From assembly GCA_019429005.1 (NCBI GenBank), contig JAHYJR010000001.1, forward strand, positions 223,048 through 287,047: a DNA stretch of 64,000 nt, given 5' to 3'. The notes beneath the pieces were generated by a model, which did not search any database, was not told the DNA's origin, and worked only from the letters and a program-made list of their open reading frames with translations. This document shows, in pieces, positions 1 through 54,693 of the stretch. The position numbers and the translations under genes are program-made. The first letter of the stretch is position 1. The number at the start of each line of letters is the position of its first letter. Source of the DNA: Nanobdellati archaeon. Lineage in GTDB: Archaea; EX4484-52; GLR71.

Positions 1-875
1 CATTTATCTCCAATAAGTTCTTTACCTTTGAATTCTTCAAGAATTTTAACGGTTTTATCTTGATATTCTAGTTTAGATGCTGCTTTTTTGCTTATGTACC
101 AAATGTCATCATTTATTTTGACTTTTACATAAGTAGCTTGCGGATTAATCCAGATATTTGTAACACCATAAACAGTTTCTGGTCTTAATGTTGATGCAAC
201 AAGATATCCGTCTTTGTAAGGGTACTTTATGCAAGTATATTCCTGAATCGCCAAATCAATCTCATCACCACTTAAGATATCATCTTCACCAACAGCATTT
301 TGATCATTTAAACAGAATAATATTGGATATTTTCCTTTTTCTAAATAATTTTTATCTTTAAGTTTATTGAATTGCCACGTTACAAAAGCATTGTATTCTG
401 TATCTCCTGTTGTGAAACTCCGTCTCCAGTCAATACTTGTTCCAAGTTCATCAAAACCCGTTTTAAATGTTTTTGCAAAATAATTTACAATATTCCATGG
501 TTCTTTAAAGCTTTCAACAATTTTTTTGACGTCATCTTTATTTTTTGTATCTAATGCAACATATTCTGTAAAACGCGTTTTTATTATTTTATCATTATTT
601 TGTATTCCTCTTGATATTGCAAGAACGGGTGTTCCTGTTATATGGAATGCCATCGGGAATAAAACATTATAACCTTTAAGTCTTTTGTATCTTGCAAAGG
701 CGTCACCACATGTAAAGGTTCTTCCATGACCTATGTGTTGTGGTCCATTTGTGTATGGATATGGCACGGTTATGAAATATTTTTTCTGGTTGAAGATAGG
801 GTTTGCTTCAAAAACTTTTTCTTTTGCCCATTTATCTTGCCATTTTTTTTCAATTTTTTTAAAATCCATACTCAT
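1..875 (-). CDS. leuS: Leucyl-tRNA synthetase, archaeal type (N-terminal part; runs off the left edge)
   Basis: Manual translation: MSMDFKKIEKKWQDKW...YFITVPYPYTNGPQHIGHGRTF...FPMAFHITGTP (HIGH motif). AAGGTG SD-like element upstream. Not in the ORF track because there is no stop in the window. Confidence 0.95.
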   Translation of the reverse strand, partial: MSMDFKKIEKKWQDKWAKEKVFEANPIFNQKKYFITVPYPYTNGPQHIGHGRTFTCGDAFARYKRLKGYNVLFPMAFHITGTPVLAISRGIQNNDKIIKTRFTEYVALDTKNKDDVKKIVESFKEPWNIVNYFAKTFKTGFDELGTSIDWRRSFTTGDTEYNAFVTWQFNKLKDKNYLEKGKYPILFCLNDQNAVGEDDILSGDEIDLAIQEYTCIKYPYKDGYLVASTLRPETVYGVTNIWINPQATYVKVKINDDIWYISKKAASKLEYQDKTVKILEEFKGKELIGDK

Positions 876-44290: not shown

Positions 44291-44350
44291 ATTGTTATTT
44301 TTATAATTATATACTTATAAAATTCAAAATATATAACATATTTGGGTTTT

Positions 44351-45388
44351 ATGGCATTTTTTAGAAAAAAAGAAAAAGAAATATTTGATCAAATTGGTAT
44401 TGACAAATATGGTGATGTAATTTTAAAAGTTAAAGATAAATCTATGGTATATTGTGTACTCAATTTTAATTCTAAACATATAAAATCAATACTTTTGAAT
44501 AATTCAAATATGCGATCGGAGTTTATACATTTTTTGTTAGATTTATGCGATATTTCAGATTTCAAAGTGTTTATAAAGGATAATAATAATCCTTTTTATG
44601 CTGATTTTGATAATAAATTTTCAACTTGTTTTGAATATGATACTTTTGATAAAAAGCATATTGTTGTTGATGATGTACCTCTAGCACATTCAATAATTAC
44701 AGCATTAGTTGGTAATGCGAAAATATCTATTGATGATGATGTTATCATAAAAAAACCAGATTATACATTTTATAGAGAATACGCAAAGGCTACAAATAGA
44801 TTATTTGAAAAAAGTGTAAATAGTACAGATTTTATAGATATTTCAAAAATTAAGACAAATAAGTTAAAATCTACAAAATTAAATAAAGAAGAATATATCT
44901 TTTTGGATTTTACTGCTTTAACTCGTAATGCTGATGATTTTCTTGCACTTTTTAAAGATGCTACTGATAACATACATTTAGTTCCAATAATACCTAAAGA
45001 TCCTTATGTATTAGGTCTGAGGTCTATAAACTCACTTCAAGTTACGGGTGTTTCTCCTAATGTACTCAAAAACGCATTAAACGATATAGATTTAGACAGT
45101 CATACTGAATTATATCTATTAAACGATATTTTGAAAAATAGTTCTTATTCTATAAAGTCTATGTTTTTTCAAGGTATTTGTGATAATAATTCTAAAGCCC
45201 ATTTATGGAAACCAATTGATGCTTATTTAAATATAATTAATTCAGAGTCTGGTTATTCTGAAATATTTAATGCACCCATTGATTTAGCTTTTGGTTTAGC
45301 ACATATTGATGATGTTGAAATATATTGTAAATCCTTAAATGTTAAAACATCTATTACTATTCCAATAGATGAGCAACTATATGTTTGA
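44351..45388 (+). CDS. Hypothetical protein
   Basis: 345-aa ORF with no motif recognised. Confidence 0.7.
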   Translation: MAFFRKKEKEIFDQIGIDKYGDVILKVKDKSMVYCVLNFNSKHIKSILLNNSNMRSEFIHFLLDLCDISDFKVFIKDNNNPFYADFDNKFSTCFEYDTFDKKHIVVDDVPLAHSIITALVGNAKISIDDDVIIKKPDYTFYREYAKATNRLFEKSVNSTDFIDISKIKTNKLKSTKLNKEEYIFLDFTALTRNADDFLALFKDATDNIHLVPIIPKDPYVLGLRSINSLQVTGVSPNVLKNALNDIDLDSHTELYLLNDILKNSSYSIKSMFFQGICDNNSKAHLWKPIDAYLNIINSESGYSEIFNAPIDLAFGLAHIDDVEIYCKSLNVKTSITIPIDEQLYV

Positions 45389-45397
45389 ACTTTTTTA

Positions 45398-45476
45398 TCT
45401 CTGGTTCATTGGGTGTTCACATCGTCACAGAGATTAACTCTCAGACATTTAGATTAAAATCATCACCTTTAGAGAA
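45398..45476 (-). ncRNA. C/D box sRNA immediately 3' of tRNA-Arg; D guide complementary to the 23S A-loop
   Basis: C GTGATGA (45466-60), D' CTGA (45444-41), C' GTGACGA (45428-22), D ATGA (45409-06), terminal TCTCT/AGAGA stem; 10-nt guide GTGAACACCC matches 23S at 50244-50253. Confidence 0.85.
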
Positions 45477-45479
45477 AAG

Positions 45480-45577
45480 CGAGCCTGAAGGGATTCGAAC
45501 CCTCGACCCCTGGATATCTTCTGGATAATATATTATCATTAGAAGTCCAGTGCTCTATCCAACTGAGCTACAAGCCC
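45480..45577 (-). tRNA. tRNA-Arg(TCT) with a 24-nt canonical 37/38 intron (45516-45539)
   Basis: CTGGA CT TCT A^[intron]^A TCCAG; the intron AGAAG pairs with CTTCT (BHB-type). Confidence 0.93.
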
Positions 45578-46600: not shown

Positions 46601-46650
46601 ATATATCATTCCTTATTTTGTATTTTTGTTTAAGTTTTTATAAATGTGTG

Positions 46651-46902
46651 ATGGGGCGAGTAAGCCTCCTTCTGTTTTTGTGGCATTTGACTATGCGTGT
46701 TTAACACTTGCTTCAGGAAAGATGCCCGTTTCACAGAATTCTTTGCAAACTTCTGCTGTAAAGCGTCATAATACTGCAAAGGTCTTTCGTTTCTGTTGCA
46801 TTGCTCAGGTTCTCACCAGCCCATAATGGGTTCCACTTCTGATTTAACAGTTGAAGGGAGGACTTTCCTCAGATATAAATACCCGAAGCCACACTGCCCC
46901 TT
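46651..46902 (-). ncRNA. rnpB: RNase P RNA (compact, about 250 nt)
   Basis: GAGGAAAGTCCTCC and AAAACAGAAGGAGGCTTA (P4 halves), GCAACAGAAAC, GTGAAACGG, P1 GGGGC/GCCCC, P2 GTGGC/GCCAC. Confidence 0.93.
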
Positions 46903-46905
46903 CTA

Positions 46906-47257: not shown

Positions 47258-48022
47258 ATGAAATATTCATTAGGTTATTACAAGATAAAGCTTTTTTCAA
47301 AGCAGACAGGGTATCTTGATAATATTAAAGGCAAAACTGTGTTTGAACTTGGTGCTGGAAGTGGCGGTTTTACACGTTTTTTGCTTGAAAATGGTGCTAA
47401 AGTCAAAGGTATTGAAATATCTGAAAAAGAATTTAAAAGTGGTTTAGATACTATTGATAACAAGGATTTTTCTCTTGTTTTTGGCGATGCGCGTTCAATC
47501 GACACAAAAAAAGTAGGAACTTTCGATATTCTTATAAATGATCTTTATCTCCCACCCCGAGATAGTATTGAAATTACTTCAAGGTTGGCATCAAATCTGA
47601 AAACAGATGGTCTTGTAATCCATGTTCTTAAGCGTGATAAAATCAATATGGGTAATTATGACATAATATTTAATTCAATAAAAGATAATCTCGAATTAGT
47701 TGATATAATAAGACCTCCGACAGGGAATGTTGAAACCTATTTTGTATTTAAGCGTGGTAAGACTAATTATTCAGATTATCTATCAAAAATATCTAATTTT
47801 ATTAGGAATATGCTTGACACGATTAATCATATTGAAGACCTTAATGATACAACCAAAGGTGTAAAATTCAATTTTTCTTTTGAATATCTCTTAAATAAAG
47901 ATGAGATTAAAAAGAAGATTTGTCCGTTTGTGACGTCAAAGGGTGTTGAATACATACTTCTGCGTAAAGGCCATGATTTTCAGCTGCATACTTCTGTTGG
48001 TAATAGATTTTTTGATGTTTGA
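47258..48022 (+). CDS. FtsJ/RlmE-like SAM-dependent 2'-O-methyltransferase
   Basis: YK, ELGAGSGGFT, ND, VLK, ETY fit the K-D-K-E tetrad; extra C-terminal region. Confidence 0.75.
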   Translation: MKYSLGYYKIKLFSKQTGYLDNIKGKTVFELGAGSGGFTRFLLENGAKVKGIEISEKEFKSGLDTIDNKDFSLVFGDARSIDTKKVGTFDILINDLYLPPRDSIEITSRLASNLKTDGLVIHVLKRDKINMGNYDIIFNSIKDNLELVDIIRPPTGNVETYFVFKRGKTNYSDYLSKISNFIRNMLDTINHIEDLNDTTKGVKFNFSFEYLLNKDEIKKKICPFVTSKGVEYILLRKGHDFQLHTSVGNRFFDV

Positions 48023-49920: not shown

Positions 49921-52850
49921 TTGCACAGATGTTTTTTCGGATTGTTAGTATTAGTGGACTGAATACGTTACCGCACTTACATCCCTAACCTATTAAACCT
50001 GTCTTCTTCAGGTATCCTATATCTATTTTTAAGGGTTGATTCAGGCTTAGATGCTGTCAGCCTTTATCAGTTATGGCGTAGCTACTCAGCATGCCCTGTT
50101 GGACAACTGATGCACCAGAGGCCACGATTCCATGTTCCTTTCGTACTGGTGGAACCTTCCTCTCAGATATTTTACACTTCTAGCAGATAGTAACCAAACT
50201 GGCTCGCGCCGTTCTAAACCCAGCTCACGATCCTCTTTAATGGGTGAACACCCCCACCCTTGGCTGCTTGTGCACAGCCAGGATGAGAAGAGCCGACAGC
50301 GAAGTAGCAAGCCTGGAGGTCGATATGAACTCTCGCTCCAGACAACTCAGTTATCCCCGGGGTAGCTTTTCTGTCACCTAAAGGCCTCAGAAAAAAGCCA
50401 TTTAGGATCGTTAGGCCACGCTTTCGCGGCAAGATTCTTCGTTGATCAGAATCCTATCAGACATACTTTTACCCTTACGCTCTACGACCGATTTCTGTCC
50501 GGTCTGAGTATATCATTGGGCACTCCTGATTTATTATTAGGAGTGTACCGCCCCAGTCAAACTGCCCATCAGTAGTTGTCCTCTTATAGAGTGAGAAACA
50601 CGATTCGAAAAGGGTAGTGTTACATTGTTGACTCCATATACATTGGCATGTATACTTCGATGTCTCCTACCTACACTATACAATTCAAACTATGTTTCAG
50701 CTACAGACTGCAGTAAAGCTCCACGGGGTCTCCACTTCCCGCTAGAAGTCTCTAGCTTGTGCACTAGAATGGCGGGTTCGCCAGGTTCCAGTCTAAGACA
50801 GTGGGGATCTCGTTACTCCATTGAAGCAGGTCGACAATTAATCGACAAGGGATTACGCTACCTTAAGATCGTCATAGTTACGACCGCCGTTTACCAGAGT
50901 TTATATCGGTTGAACCCGAATTTCACTTACTGGCACTGGGCAGGAGTCACTGACTGTACAAATCCTTACGGACTAGCAGTCAGCTATGTTTTTACTAAAC
51001 AGTCGGACCCCCCTTGACATTGAAATCTACAGTTCTTATTAAAAATAAGGCTATAGACACTCCTTATACCGAAGGTACGGAGCTAATTTGCTGAATTCCT
51101 TAGACTCGGATTCTCCTGAACGCCTTAGATTACTAATCTAGGGGCACCTGTGATGGTTCTCGGTACGATTACAAAAAATCCTTTTTAGTTTCTTTTTCAC
51201 GGACTCCAAGATTCTCCTGAATTCTCCATAAGGAGAACTATTCTTGATTTCACCTACTTCTCGTCATTACGACTCTCCATAGGTTTATACAATTAACATA
51301 AGCTTGCGCTCGTGTCAAGATATCTGGAAGTGTCAGAAACTAAACTAGCGTTGCCGCACGTATTTTTGTAGTACAGGAATATTAACCTGTTTCCCTTTCT
51401 TGGATGACAATTTACAGATCCAATTAGGATCGACTAACTCCCAGTTGACGAACATTGCTGGGAAAACCTAGCCCTTATGGCGATCGGGATTCTCACCCGA
51501 CGTTATTGCTACTACCGACGAGATTCTCTATTAAAAAAGGTCCACAGGATCTTACAACCCTGCTTCTACCCTATTATAATGCCTTCTTACTGAATCACAT
51601 CTTAAAAGATGTGCCCTAAAGTATCGGTGATTTACTTTAGCCCCGTCCATTTACGACGCCCTAAACCTAGATAGGTGAGCTATTACGCTTTCTTTAAAGG
51701 ATAGCTGCTTCTAAGCTTACCTCCCTATTGTTTTAGGTCTAAGACTATCTTACGATTACACTTAGTAAATACTTTGGGACCTTAACTTTAGCCTGAGTTG
51801 TCCCTCTCTAGGATACCGAGCTTACCCCGGCACCCTCACTTCTGGCTTCTACAATGTTTTTGGATTCGGAGTTTGGCAGAACACCGACCGGTTTCCCAGC
51901 CTAAATGCTCAATCAGTATCTCTACCCCAAAAACTATCTCCACCAAAGCTGAGCTACGGCACATTTCAGAAGGAACCTGCTATTGCCAGGTTCGATTGGC
52001 TTTTCACCCCTTACCCCAGGTTACCCGAATACACAATAATACCGGTTCAGACCTCCATGCAGTTTTCACCACACTTCATCTTACCCAGGGCAAGATCACC
52101 TGGCTTCAGGTGGTACACCCGTGATTAATCGCGCTATTAACACGACATCCCTCACATGCAAGCATGCTGCGGATTTTTGGTTTCCCTCTGGCTTCGAAAT
52201 TACATTTCTTAACCTCACCACGAATGTACACTCCTCGTCCCGTTTTTCGAAACGTACAATATAACTCTGTGATCAAATCACTTTTAAGCCATATATGTCT
52301 ATAACCATACAGTTTCAGGTTCTTTTCACTTCCCGCTAAGGATACTTTTCAACTTTCCCTCACGGTACTTAGTCCACTATCGGTCTCAGTTAATGTTTAG
52401 GTTTAGGAGTTTCTGACTCCTATATTCCACCAGGAATTCCAACCTAGTGTACTCTTTTTCAGAAGCAATCTTTTACAAACTCATCTACGGGACTATCACC
52501 CTTTATAGTATGCCGTTCCAGACAACTTTGACGATCTGTATGAAGACTGTATTCTTCTGATACCACATTTCCCTAATATTTCTAATAGGGATTCGGCTTG
52601 ACCTCTACCGTGTTCGATCGACTTTACTAACGGCATCGTTTTTACTTTCTTTTCCTGCGGGTACTAAGATGATTCAATTCTCCGCGTTTCTCTTCCCTAA
52701 TGGGAATACTCTTACGAGTTAGATGCTTATTCGGAAATCTCTGGATCACAGACTACGTGCGTCTACCCAAAGCTTATCGCAGCTTGTCACGTCCTTCATC
52801 AGTTACCTGAGCCGAGCCATCCCCTGTATGGCGTTGCAACATCTGTGCAA
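49921..52850 (-). rRNA. 23S rRNA (ends approximate)
   Basis: Reverse complement of conserved PTC, A-loop and sarcin-ricin (AGTACGAAAGGAAC) sequences; terminal helix TTGCACAGATGTT/AACATCTGTGCAA flanked by a BHB processing stem. Confidence 0.97.

Positions 52851-53220: not shown

Positions 53221-54693
<1,473 letters not shown>

Follow-up and report, generated by a model that had tools for sequence, protein, structure and literature searches.

The uridine of the 23S rRNA A-loop that corresponds to Escherichia coli U2552 is a predicted target of guide RNAs in described systems: sRNA10, a small RNA (sRNA) of Nanoarchaeum equitans, is listed as predicted to guide methylation at this position (GGGGUmGUUCACC; Randau 2012, PMC3491384), and Dennis et al. 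(PMC4644070) predict that U2552 is guided in five of the species that they cover. Dicistronic genes in which a tRNA precedes a box C/D sRNA, with processing by ribonuclease Z (RNase Z), have been proposed for N. equitans (tRNA-Val-sRNA8 and tRNA-Gly-sRNA3; PMC3491384), and a 2021 review lists others in I. hospitalis (tRNA-Ser) and T. tenax (tRNA-Pro) (PMC7994747). The same review cites Kruszka et al. 2003 for dicistronic genes of a tRNA and a small nucleolar RNA (snoRNA) that are processed by RNase Z in plants. Here we describe a box C/D sRNA directly behind a tRNA-Arg(UCU) gene, on the minus strand of a 64,000-nucleotide (nt) stretch of DNA, hereafter the window, from a Nanobdellati archaeon (assembly GCA_019429005.1, contig JAHYJR010000001.1, our contig C11, positions 223048-287047; the genome is G000 in our comparisons). 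An initial annotation of this locus, made from its letters, had predicted that the sRNA guides methylation of the U2552 equivalent and had invoked the tRNA-C/D dicistrons of Nanoarchaeum and plants as precedent; both are described in the sources cited above. sRNA-guided U2552 methylation and tRNA-sRNA dicistrons are already in print and current understanding is not overturned, and the locus adds the annotation of an unrecognised RNA gene.

The closest described guide, N. equitans sRNA10, resembles the sRNA in having a guide (AGUGAACACCCU) to the same A-loop uridine, and comes from a DPANN archaeon whose genome is small and whose C/D system is active. It differs in that its guide stands in the D' position, its boxes are the canonical GUGAUGA/CUGA and its gene is not listed beside a tRNA, whereas the guide described here occupies the D position of an sRNA that has AUGAUUU/AUGA boxes and is preceded by tRNA-Arg. 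The archaeal dicistrons likewise have the sRNA directly downstream of the tRNA, and an RNase Z cut is proposed there to make the sRNA 5' end, but the present locus has an intron-containing Arg-UCU tRNA and another guide target, and its joint precursor is a predicted one. Plant tRNA-snoRNA genes have the same layout and the same proposed enzyme, but are eukaryotic, driven by RNA polymerase III, and concern other tRNAs and targets. Thermococcus C/D sRNAs (L069, L080, L104, L113), with the D guide CGUGAACACCCU, share the D position, the A-loop target sequence and the overall size; they differ by their canonical G:C boxes (AUGACGA/CUGA), by the D' guide AUAGCAAGCAUG and by having no tRNA upstream within the fetched flank. 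The Rfam family sR3 was rejected as a family name, the Thermococcus counterpart reaching 41.6-43 bits through its boxes and not through its guides. In bacteria, U2552 is 2'-O-methylated by a stand-alone methyltransferase, RlmE/FtsJ (RrmJ), which acts on the same nucleotide with the same presumed role in A-site tRNA accommodation, but is a protein-only enzyme. This role of RlmE is partly stated in the 2021 review (PMC7994747).

The sRNA extends from 45399 to 45474 (minus strand, as are all features described unless stated otherwise), as delimited by its sequence, an architecture scan, family comparison and folding, and includes an extended terminal stem, CUCU-AAA-GGU / ACC-AGAG. Read as RNA from the tRNA discriminator, G45480, the order is a 5-nt spacer CUUUU (45475-45479), CUCU-AAA-GGU-G, box C AUGAUUU (45457-45463), the D' guide UAAUCUAAAUGU (45445-45456), box D' CUGA (45441-45444), the 12-nt D'-C' linker GAGUUAAUCUCU, box C' GUGACGA (45422-45428), the D guide UGUGAACACCCA (45410-45421), box D AUGA (45406-45409), ACC-AGAG, and AU followed by an A-run. 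Both guide spacers are exactly 12 nt long and are flanked by the internal D' and C' boxes, whose C1 (box D') pairs with G6 (box C'). Box C is a variant of RUGAUGA with U at position 6, and box D a variant of CUGA. A complete C-D'-C'-D element is present, as had been noticed initially, although its box C is AUGAUUU and not GUGAUGA. The 15-nt D' guide that the latter box implied gives way to a register of AUGAUUU plus 12 nt, first corrected with 17 distinct relatives and then with 24 distinct sequences of the order, in which box C reads AUGAUU[U/A/C]. The position of the sRNA behind the tRNA is likewise confirmed, with a spacer of 5 nt where about 4 had been given. The AUGAUUU/AUGA pair retains the tandem GA/GA of a kink-turn (k-turn) and a U.U at 3b:3n, with 4b:4n being U:A and not the usual G:C. 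The minimum-free-energy fold gives the terminal stem and a small hairpin within the D'-C' linker.

The D guide finds its target in the 23S rRNA of the same genome (49925-52846, Rfam). The sequence GGGTGTTCAC occurs once in this rRNA, at 50253-50244, and the D guide makes 10 consecutive Watson-Crick pairs with the A-loop (helix 92) segment GGGUGUUCAC, so that the perfect pairing claimed by the initial annotation holds at a single site. A45414, the fifth base upstream of box D, faces U50250 (23S nt 2597), the A-loop's first nucleotide. In the alignment with E. coli 23S (context GGGTATGGCTGTTCGCCATTTAAAG in E. coli, GGGTGGGGGTGTTCACCCATTAAAG in the source genome), U50250 falls on the first U of CUGUUCGCC, which is nt 2555 of a copy of 2,907 nt; the standard numbering runs over 2,904 nt, 3 fewer than this copy, and nt 2555 is then U2552. 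Pairing and alignment both bear out the earlier prediction, and U50250 is the U2552 equivalent, which the fifth-base rule selects as the predicted site of 2'-O-methylation. A strict scan of the genome for the architecture (both box pairs, spacers of 11-13 nt, Watson-Crick 4b:4n in both motifs and a closing stem of 3 base pairs (bp)) returned 3 loci, one of them the sRNA at 45399-45474, against 0 in the reversed genome. A looser de novo scan, which asked for a box C of any form, a box D, 3 bp of stem and 9 bp matching rRNA, was discarded as uninformative in this 30% GC genome, with 100 candidates against 76 when reversed rRNA decoys were used.

The sRNA is conserved across the order. In a BLAST comparison of the region with 40 relatives, matches to the C'-guide-D segment lay 170-260 nt downstream of the tRNA matches. 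The exact pattern GTGAACACCNNMTGA occurs in 32 of the 41 genomes of the order (the source genome included), as one copy in 30 and two copies in 2, and its reversed form in 0 of 41; the 9 genomes without a match are 68-90% complete. The core of the D guide, GUGAACACC, is kept in 32 of the 41 genomes, and box D is ATGA in 31 and CTGA in 3 of the 34 exact matches. From 30 fetched loci, 28 could be parsed to the full architecture (all except L144 and L160), giving 24 distinct sequences. In all 24, the pair C6:D1 (4b:4n) is U:A and C5:D2 (3b:3n) is U.U, and C'6:D'1 is Watson-Crick (G:C in 16, U:A in 8), covarying across the family, which suggests compensatory toggling of the internal C'/D' motif between these two pair types. 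At the closing-stem positions -2:+1, -3:+2 and -4:+3, every one of the 24 sequences forms a pair, with two or three pair types per position (C:G 18 and U:A 6; G:C 22, A:U 1 and C:G 1; G:C 20, U:A 3 and A:U 1, respectively). When the 3' partner was shifted by one position, a single sequence of the 24 formed the first stem pair and none formed C6:D2; the second pair, which is rich in GC, persisted in 19. The sequences are kin, so these counts are not independent events, but several distinct compensatory types are present nonetheless. The rate of chance matches taken alone left the pairing of the D guide suggestive; this conservation across the order, as read from sequence comparison, settles that the sRNA is real. 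What emerges is a single-copy guide family that an order of DPANN-type archaea shares; most of its members have two targets, helix 69 and the A-loop. As a separate observation, at one locus (L145 of G001, 1-340, minus strand) the 3' end of the sRNA and the flank behind it recur as a partial second copy (...AAACACCCUAUGAGUCU...GGAUACUAAUAUUCUAAAAC), some 130 nt downstream of the intact one, which suggests a local duplication.

Taken together, these data are best explained by an archaeal box C/D guide RNA that is functional, measures about 65-76 nt and would be cotranscribed with tRNA-Arg, released by RNase Z, and would methylate the U2552 equivalent, a reading to which we give a probability of about 0.82. 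The promoter of tRNA-Arg(UCU) would drive transcription of the sRNA, which would form the 3' trailer of the precursor tRNA, and RNase Z would cleave after the discriminator G45480, freeing a trailer that begins with CUUUUCUCU. L7Ae could then bind the terminal C/D and internal C'/D' k-turns, Nop5 and fibrillarin would assemble, and exonucleases would trim the RNA to its protected ends. With the D guide paired to the A-loop segment, fibrillarin would 2'-O-methylate U50250, opposite the fifth guide base. In most relatives, the D' guide would in addition target for methylation the cytidine of helix 69 that corresponds to C1920.

Several observations weigh against this reading. Boxes C and D are off the RUGAUGA/CUGA consensus, the literal consensus failing at two positions, and no Rfam C/D family reaches its gathering score (SNORD91 18.5 against 51 bits, SNORD72 17.4 against 43, sR38 14 against 50). 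The fold energy is ordinary (z = -0.90; 29 of 200 shuffles fold equally well), as is expected since a k-turn RNA is protein-dependent. The rRNA match of the D guide taken alone is only suggestive, because, among the 20,302 12-mers of this genome that stand before an [AC]TGA, 263 (1.3%) reach 10 or more perfect rRNA pairs covering position 5. Every one of the 14 genomes from which a 23S rRNA was recovered (the source genome and 13 relatives) has the same A-loop target, so the D guide cannot display guide-target covariation; this check, which the initial annotation had put forward, is uninformative for the A-loop. An equivalent compensatory change, described below, exists between the D' guide and helix 69 of relatives. 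The D' guide of the source genome has no convincing target in the rRNAs, the 33 tRNAs and RNase P RNA (5S and signal recognition particle RNA were not searched), which extends the same negative reported initially for the window: its best partners, in 16S, in 23S and in a tRNA, reach 9 pairs including 2 G-U, and it has four exact 11-mer matches elsewhere in the genome, roughly as many as chance would give by our own composition-based estimate. The CUUUU tract could terminate some transcripts. Finally, tRNA-Arg(UCU) lies upstream in only 14 of the 30 family loci (the source genome, 8 of genus g3, which are all of them, and 5 of genus g8), 8 of these linkages being called by ARAGORN and 6 by eye (introns in the D- or T-arm); a tRNA-Gln(CUG) is upstream in 1 and no tRNA in 15. 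As several of the unlinked relatives have TATA-like boxes of their own, the sRNA is not tRNA-dependent in general.

These last points bear on the alternative that survives best, namely a functional sRNA transcribed independently of the tRNA, with no dicistron and no role for RNase Z. It is favored by the 15 of 30 loci without a tRNA immediately upstream, by a TATA-like sequence about 25-30 nt ahead of the sRNA at several loci (recognized by eye), and by the terminator-like T5-T7 runs in the tRNA-sRNA spacer of the sister genus. In the source genome, the sRNA stem begins 5 nt and box C 16 nt after the discriminator on the same strand, distances at which no promoter fits upstream of the sRNA without being forced into the constrained tRNA gene, and the one nearby TATA-like box, TTAATATAA, is upstream of the tRNA (by 15-23 nt), as at other tRNAs of the genome. 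The spacer holds only a T4 tract (CUUUUC), and many other tRNA genes here are followed by T5-T8 (by eye). Spacers measure about 29 nt and are T-rich in g3, measure about 60 nt in g8, and are most compact in the source genome. Independent transcription is consequently unlikely at this locus, and a tRNA-sRNA co-transcript cut by RNase Z would be the simplest reading. The A-run at which the initial annotation ended the sRNA is indeed present after it, but is not a terminator of the sRNA, because it lies on the RNA-sense strand and the corresponding plus-strand T-run (45388-45396) directly follows the stop codon of a convergent ORF (open reading frame; 44342-45388); this T-run is more likely the terminator of that ORF than a signal of the sRNA.

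The tRNA-Arg(UCU) gene itself (45480-45577, 98 nt; Rfam tRNA 57.6 bits) is the sole gene for tRNA-Arg(UCU) in the set of 33 tRNAs detected. It is missed by ARAGORN in default mode and called as tRNA-Arg(tct) i(39,24) in the intron-permitting mode (-i), with the anticodon at 45541-45543 and a 24-nt intron at the canonical 37/38 position (45516-45539). No CCA is encoded, the 3' end reading ...GCUCG followed by CUUUU. In genus g3, the orthologues (L010, L014, L016, L039-L042) have non-canonical introns of 25-110 nt in the D-loop and T-loop, whose position varies even among close relatives; the source genome has one, at the canonical site.

The genome encodes the proteins needed by the proposed guide. 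The three C/D proteins named by the initial annotation are present, all above their Pfam cut-offs: fibrillarin with 292.9 bits, Nop5, whose gene lies immediately upstream of that for fibrillarin, with 164.5 bits, and an L7Ae-family protein with 88.5 bits. RNase Z scores 343.6 bits for a cut-off of 292.95. A canonical RlmE/FtsJ was not found in the source genome or in the 40 relatives (best Pfam FtsJ match 35 bits in any of the 41), and the same search detected the family above the cut-off in all 14 control genomes. The guide could explain how a 1.08-Mb archaeal genome without recognisable RlmE may still modify a near-universal A-loop uridine, which lies in the catalytic centre of the ribosome.

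A second alternative is that the sRNA is real while a stand-alone protein methylates the U2552 equivalent or serves as a backup for this, and the guide would be redundant or act mainly as an rRNA-folding chaperone. Redundancy of protein and guide at the U2552 site is known in yeast and counts in favor of this possibility. The candidate is an ORF of 254 amino acids on the plus strand (47258-48022), an FtsJ-like S-adenosylmethionine (SAM)-dependent methyltransferase located between 23S and RNase P RNA, only 1.7 kb away in the same neighbourhood of RNA genes, and its Pfam FtsJ score (33.1-33.6 bits) is above the cut-off of 24.1 bits. The match covers only the SAM-binding half of the profile (5-100 of 181). 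In NCBIfam nothing comes near a cut-off (27 against 185.8 for the TlyA subfamily, with similar scores for KsgA and Erm), and the best PDB sequence matches are KsgA/Dim1 dimethyladenosine transferases (E = 5e-4). No homologue occurs in the 40 relatives and a single one, 67% identical, among 5.8 billion database proteins; the AlphaFold2 model, built from a 2-sequence alignment, has a mean pLDDT of 32.1 and is too poor for a fold search. The half-length match, the scores far under the NCBIfam cut-offs, the KsgA/Dim1 structures and the genome-specificity all argue against this protein being the methyltransferase of the site, and the order-wide conservation of the guide argues that the guide is under selection. 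We regard this second alternative as distinctly improbable and retain the guided methylation. The same ORF was considered as a TlyA-like substitute for the lost helix 69 guide discussed below; with nothing but the 27-bit TlyA match and the genome-specificity in its favor, and KsgA/Dim1 as the best PDB matches, this idea was dropped as unsupported speculation.

The second guide of the sRNA has a different history. By eye, the D' guides of 19 of the 24 distinct family sequences were classed as variants of AAGAUCGUCA or AAGACCGU[A/C]A. This guide of relatives, in the form GAAGAUCGUCAU, makes 11 bp with the 3' strand of helix 69, AUGACGAUCUUA, in the source genome's own 23S (50864-50875; 23S nt 1972-1982), its fifth base facing C1976 (50871). 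This cytidine aligns with nt 1921 of the E. coli 23S copy, which we take to be C1920 in the standard numbering. In the three relatives checked with both an sRNA and a 23S of this type (G002, G006, G014), guides with GAUCGU face ACGAUC in their own 23S; in G022, the guide reads GACCGU and the 23S CUCUGACGGU (ACGGUC, followed by an intron), which is one compensatory guide-target change. The source genome also reads ACGAUC, helix 69 being unchanged there, and its D' guide, which is unrelated to the helix 69 guide, would be a decayed half that has lost its ancestral complementarity. G001, G016 and family f5, all of which keep the D guide, lack the helix 69 guide as well, and the guide family provides an example of guide plasticity in which the A-loop guide is frozen and its partner was lost at least four times. 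No replacement helix 69 guide was identified in the source genome, a weak candidate on contig C12 (nt 17901) being rejected because convincing boxes are absent. That the whole element is a chance resemblance or a decaying, non-working C/D pseudogene, as the lost helix 69 target, the non-consensus boxes and the absence of an Rfam family at threshold might suggest, is very improbable, since nothing is missing from the boxes, 12-nt spacings, terminal stem and D guide, all of which agree with the consensus of the family, 32 genomes share one and the same D guide core, boxes off the general consensus are usual in this family and preserve Watson-Crick pairing at 4b:4n, and the D' guide alone is lost in G001, G016 and f5 as well.

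In three relatives (L052 of G022, L050 of G024 and L051 of G019), an intron of about 780 nt splits the 23S inside the 3' strand of helix 69, within the target site of the D' guide: the last letters of the 5' exon are ...CUGACG[G/A]U, and the 3' exon continues with CUUAAGGUAGCG. The start of the intron can pair with the 5' exon, as for a group I intron, and its ORF (LAGFADGEG...) looks, from its sequence, like a LAGLIDADG homing endonuclease.

A pattern scan over one genome per prokaryotic species gave 57 loci. Five are in records with bacterial labels (Mycolicibacterium, Aestuariivirga, Gemmatimonadales, Gemmatimonadota and Campylobacterales). Four of these look like chance matches, given their GC-rich and box-free context; the fifth (L085, labelled Campylobacterales) is a complete AUGA-type sRNA with DPANN-family sequence, and its label is probably wrong. 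The remaining loci are labelled Woesearchaeota, Nanohaloarchaea/Nanohalarchaeota, Nanoarchaeota, 'Nanobdellati', Altiarchaeota, Undinarchaeota, Aenigmatarchaeota, Methanosarcinales and Thermococcus. These archaeal loci carry the A-loop guide in the D or the D' position, mostly with the canonical CUGA, and the AUGA-type form does not occur outside records that carry DPANN-type labels, apart from a few whose labels look doubtful. At one locus (L095, Candidatus Nanohalalkaliarchaeum), the A-loop-guide C/D element would lie inside the 198-nt intron of a tRNA-Thr(cgt) put forward by ARAGORN, an arrangement that recalls intron-encoded C/D sRNAs; at the Rfam gathering threshold no tRNA is found there.

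Ashraf et al. report that in archaeal box C/D k-turns 3b:3n tends to be U:U and 4b:4n is strongly conserved as G:C (PMC5689011). The clade-wide U:A at 4b:4n is the one departure from this reported pattern and is mildly unusual, a natural variant of the C/D k-turn that motif-based finders would miss. Three guides have been found so far in the source genome. Besides the A-loop guide (10 bp to U2552), the second locus of the strict scan (contig C8, nt 110316, minus strand) has AUGAUGA/CUGA boxes and a D guide with 11 bp (one G-U) to the 16S segment ACCGCCCGUCAA, its fifth base falling on the equivalent of E. coli C1402. The third locus (contig C11, nt 122787, plus strand, outside the window) has AUGAUUA/AUGA boxes twice and a D' guide with 8 bp to the P-loop region CUGGGGCGGU of 23S (GGGG). 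In bacteria, the U2552, C1402 and P-loop sites are modified by stand-alone enzymes. We tentatively raise the possibility that an order-level DPANN-type clade has fixed a non-canonical terminal k-turn (AUGAUUN/AUGA, with U:A at 4b:4n against the G:C reported for archaeal and human C/D RNAs, and a toggling C'/D' motif), together with a C/D system that in the source genome would be pared to a handful of guides to the ribosome core. If this were true, finders demanding CUGA would miss much of the DPANN sRNA repertoire, and the clade would be a natural test of the effect of 4b:4n on L7Ae-dependent folding. Among the matches listed in a literature search, none joined DPANN with box sRNAs.

The source genome (15 contigs, 1.08 Mb, GC 29.7%, completeness 93.6%, contamination 1.1%) has its 16S rRNA in the same window (53221-54693, Rfam). 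On the same minus strand, between 46904 and 45398, RNase P RNA (46649-46904, Rfam, 164.8 bits) is followed by sec61-beta, an ORF of the apurinic/apyrimidinic (AP) endonuclease family, tRNA-Arg(UCU) and the sRNA, the ORFs being assigned from Pfam matches. The order RNase P RNA/sec61-beta/tRNA-Arg/sRNA is also found in two relatives (L023, 840-1720, and L018), the AP-endonuclease-family ORF being an addition of the source genome. In members of two families of the order, this cluster lies 57 nt to 3 kb downstream of 23S. The idea of a guide encoded inside the rRNA operon that it modifies was not supported, as genes on the opposite strand stand in between in the source genome. In one relative, a TTTTTATTTTT run stands after the 3' end of 23S, ahead of RNase P RNA.

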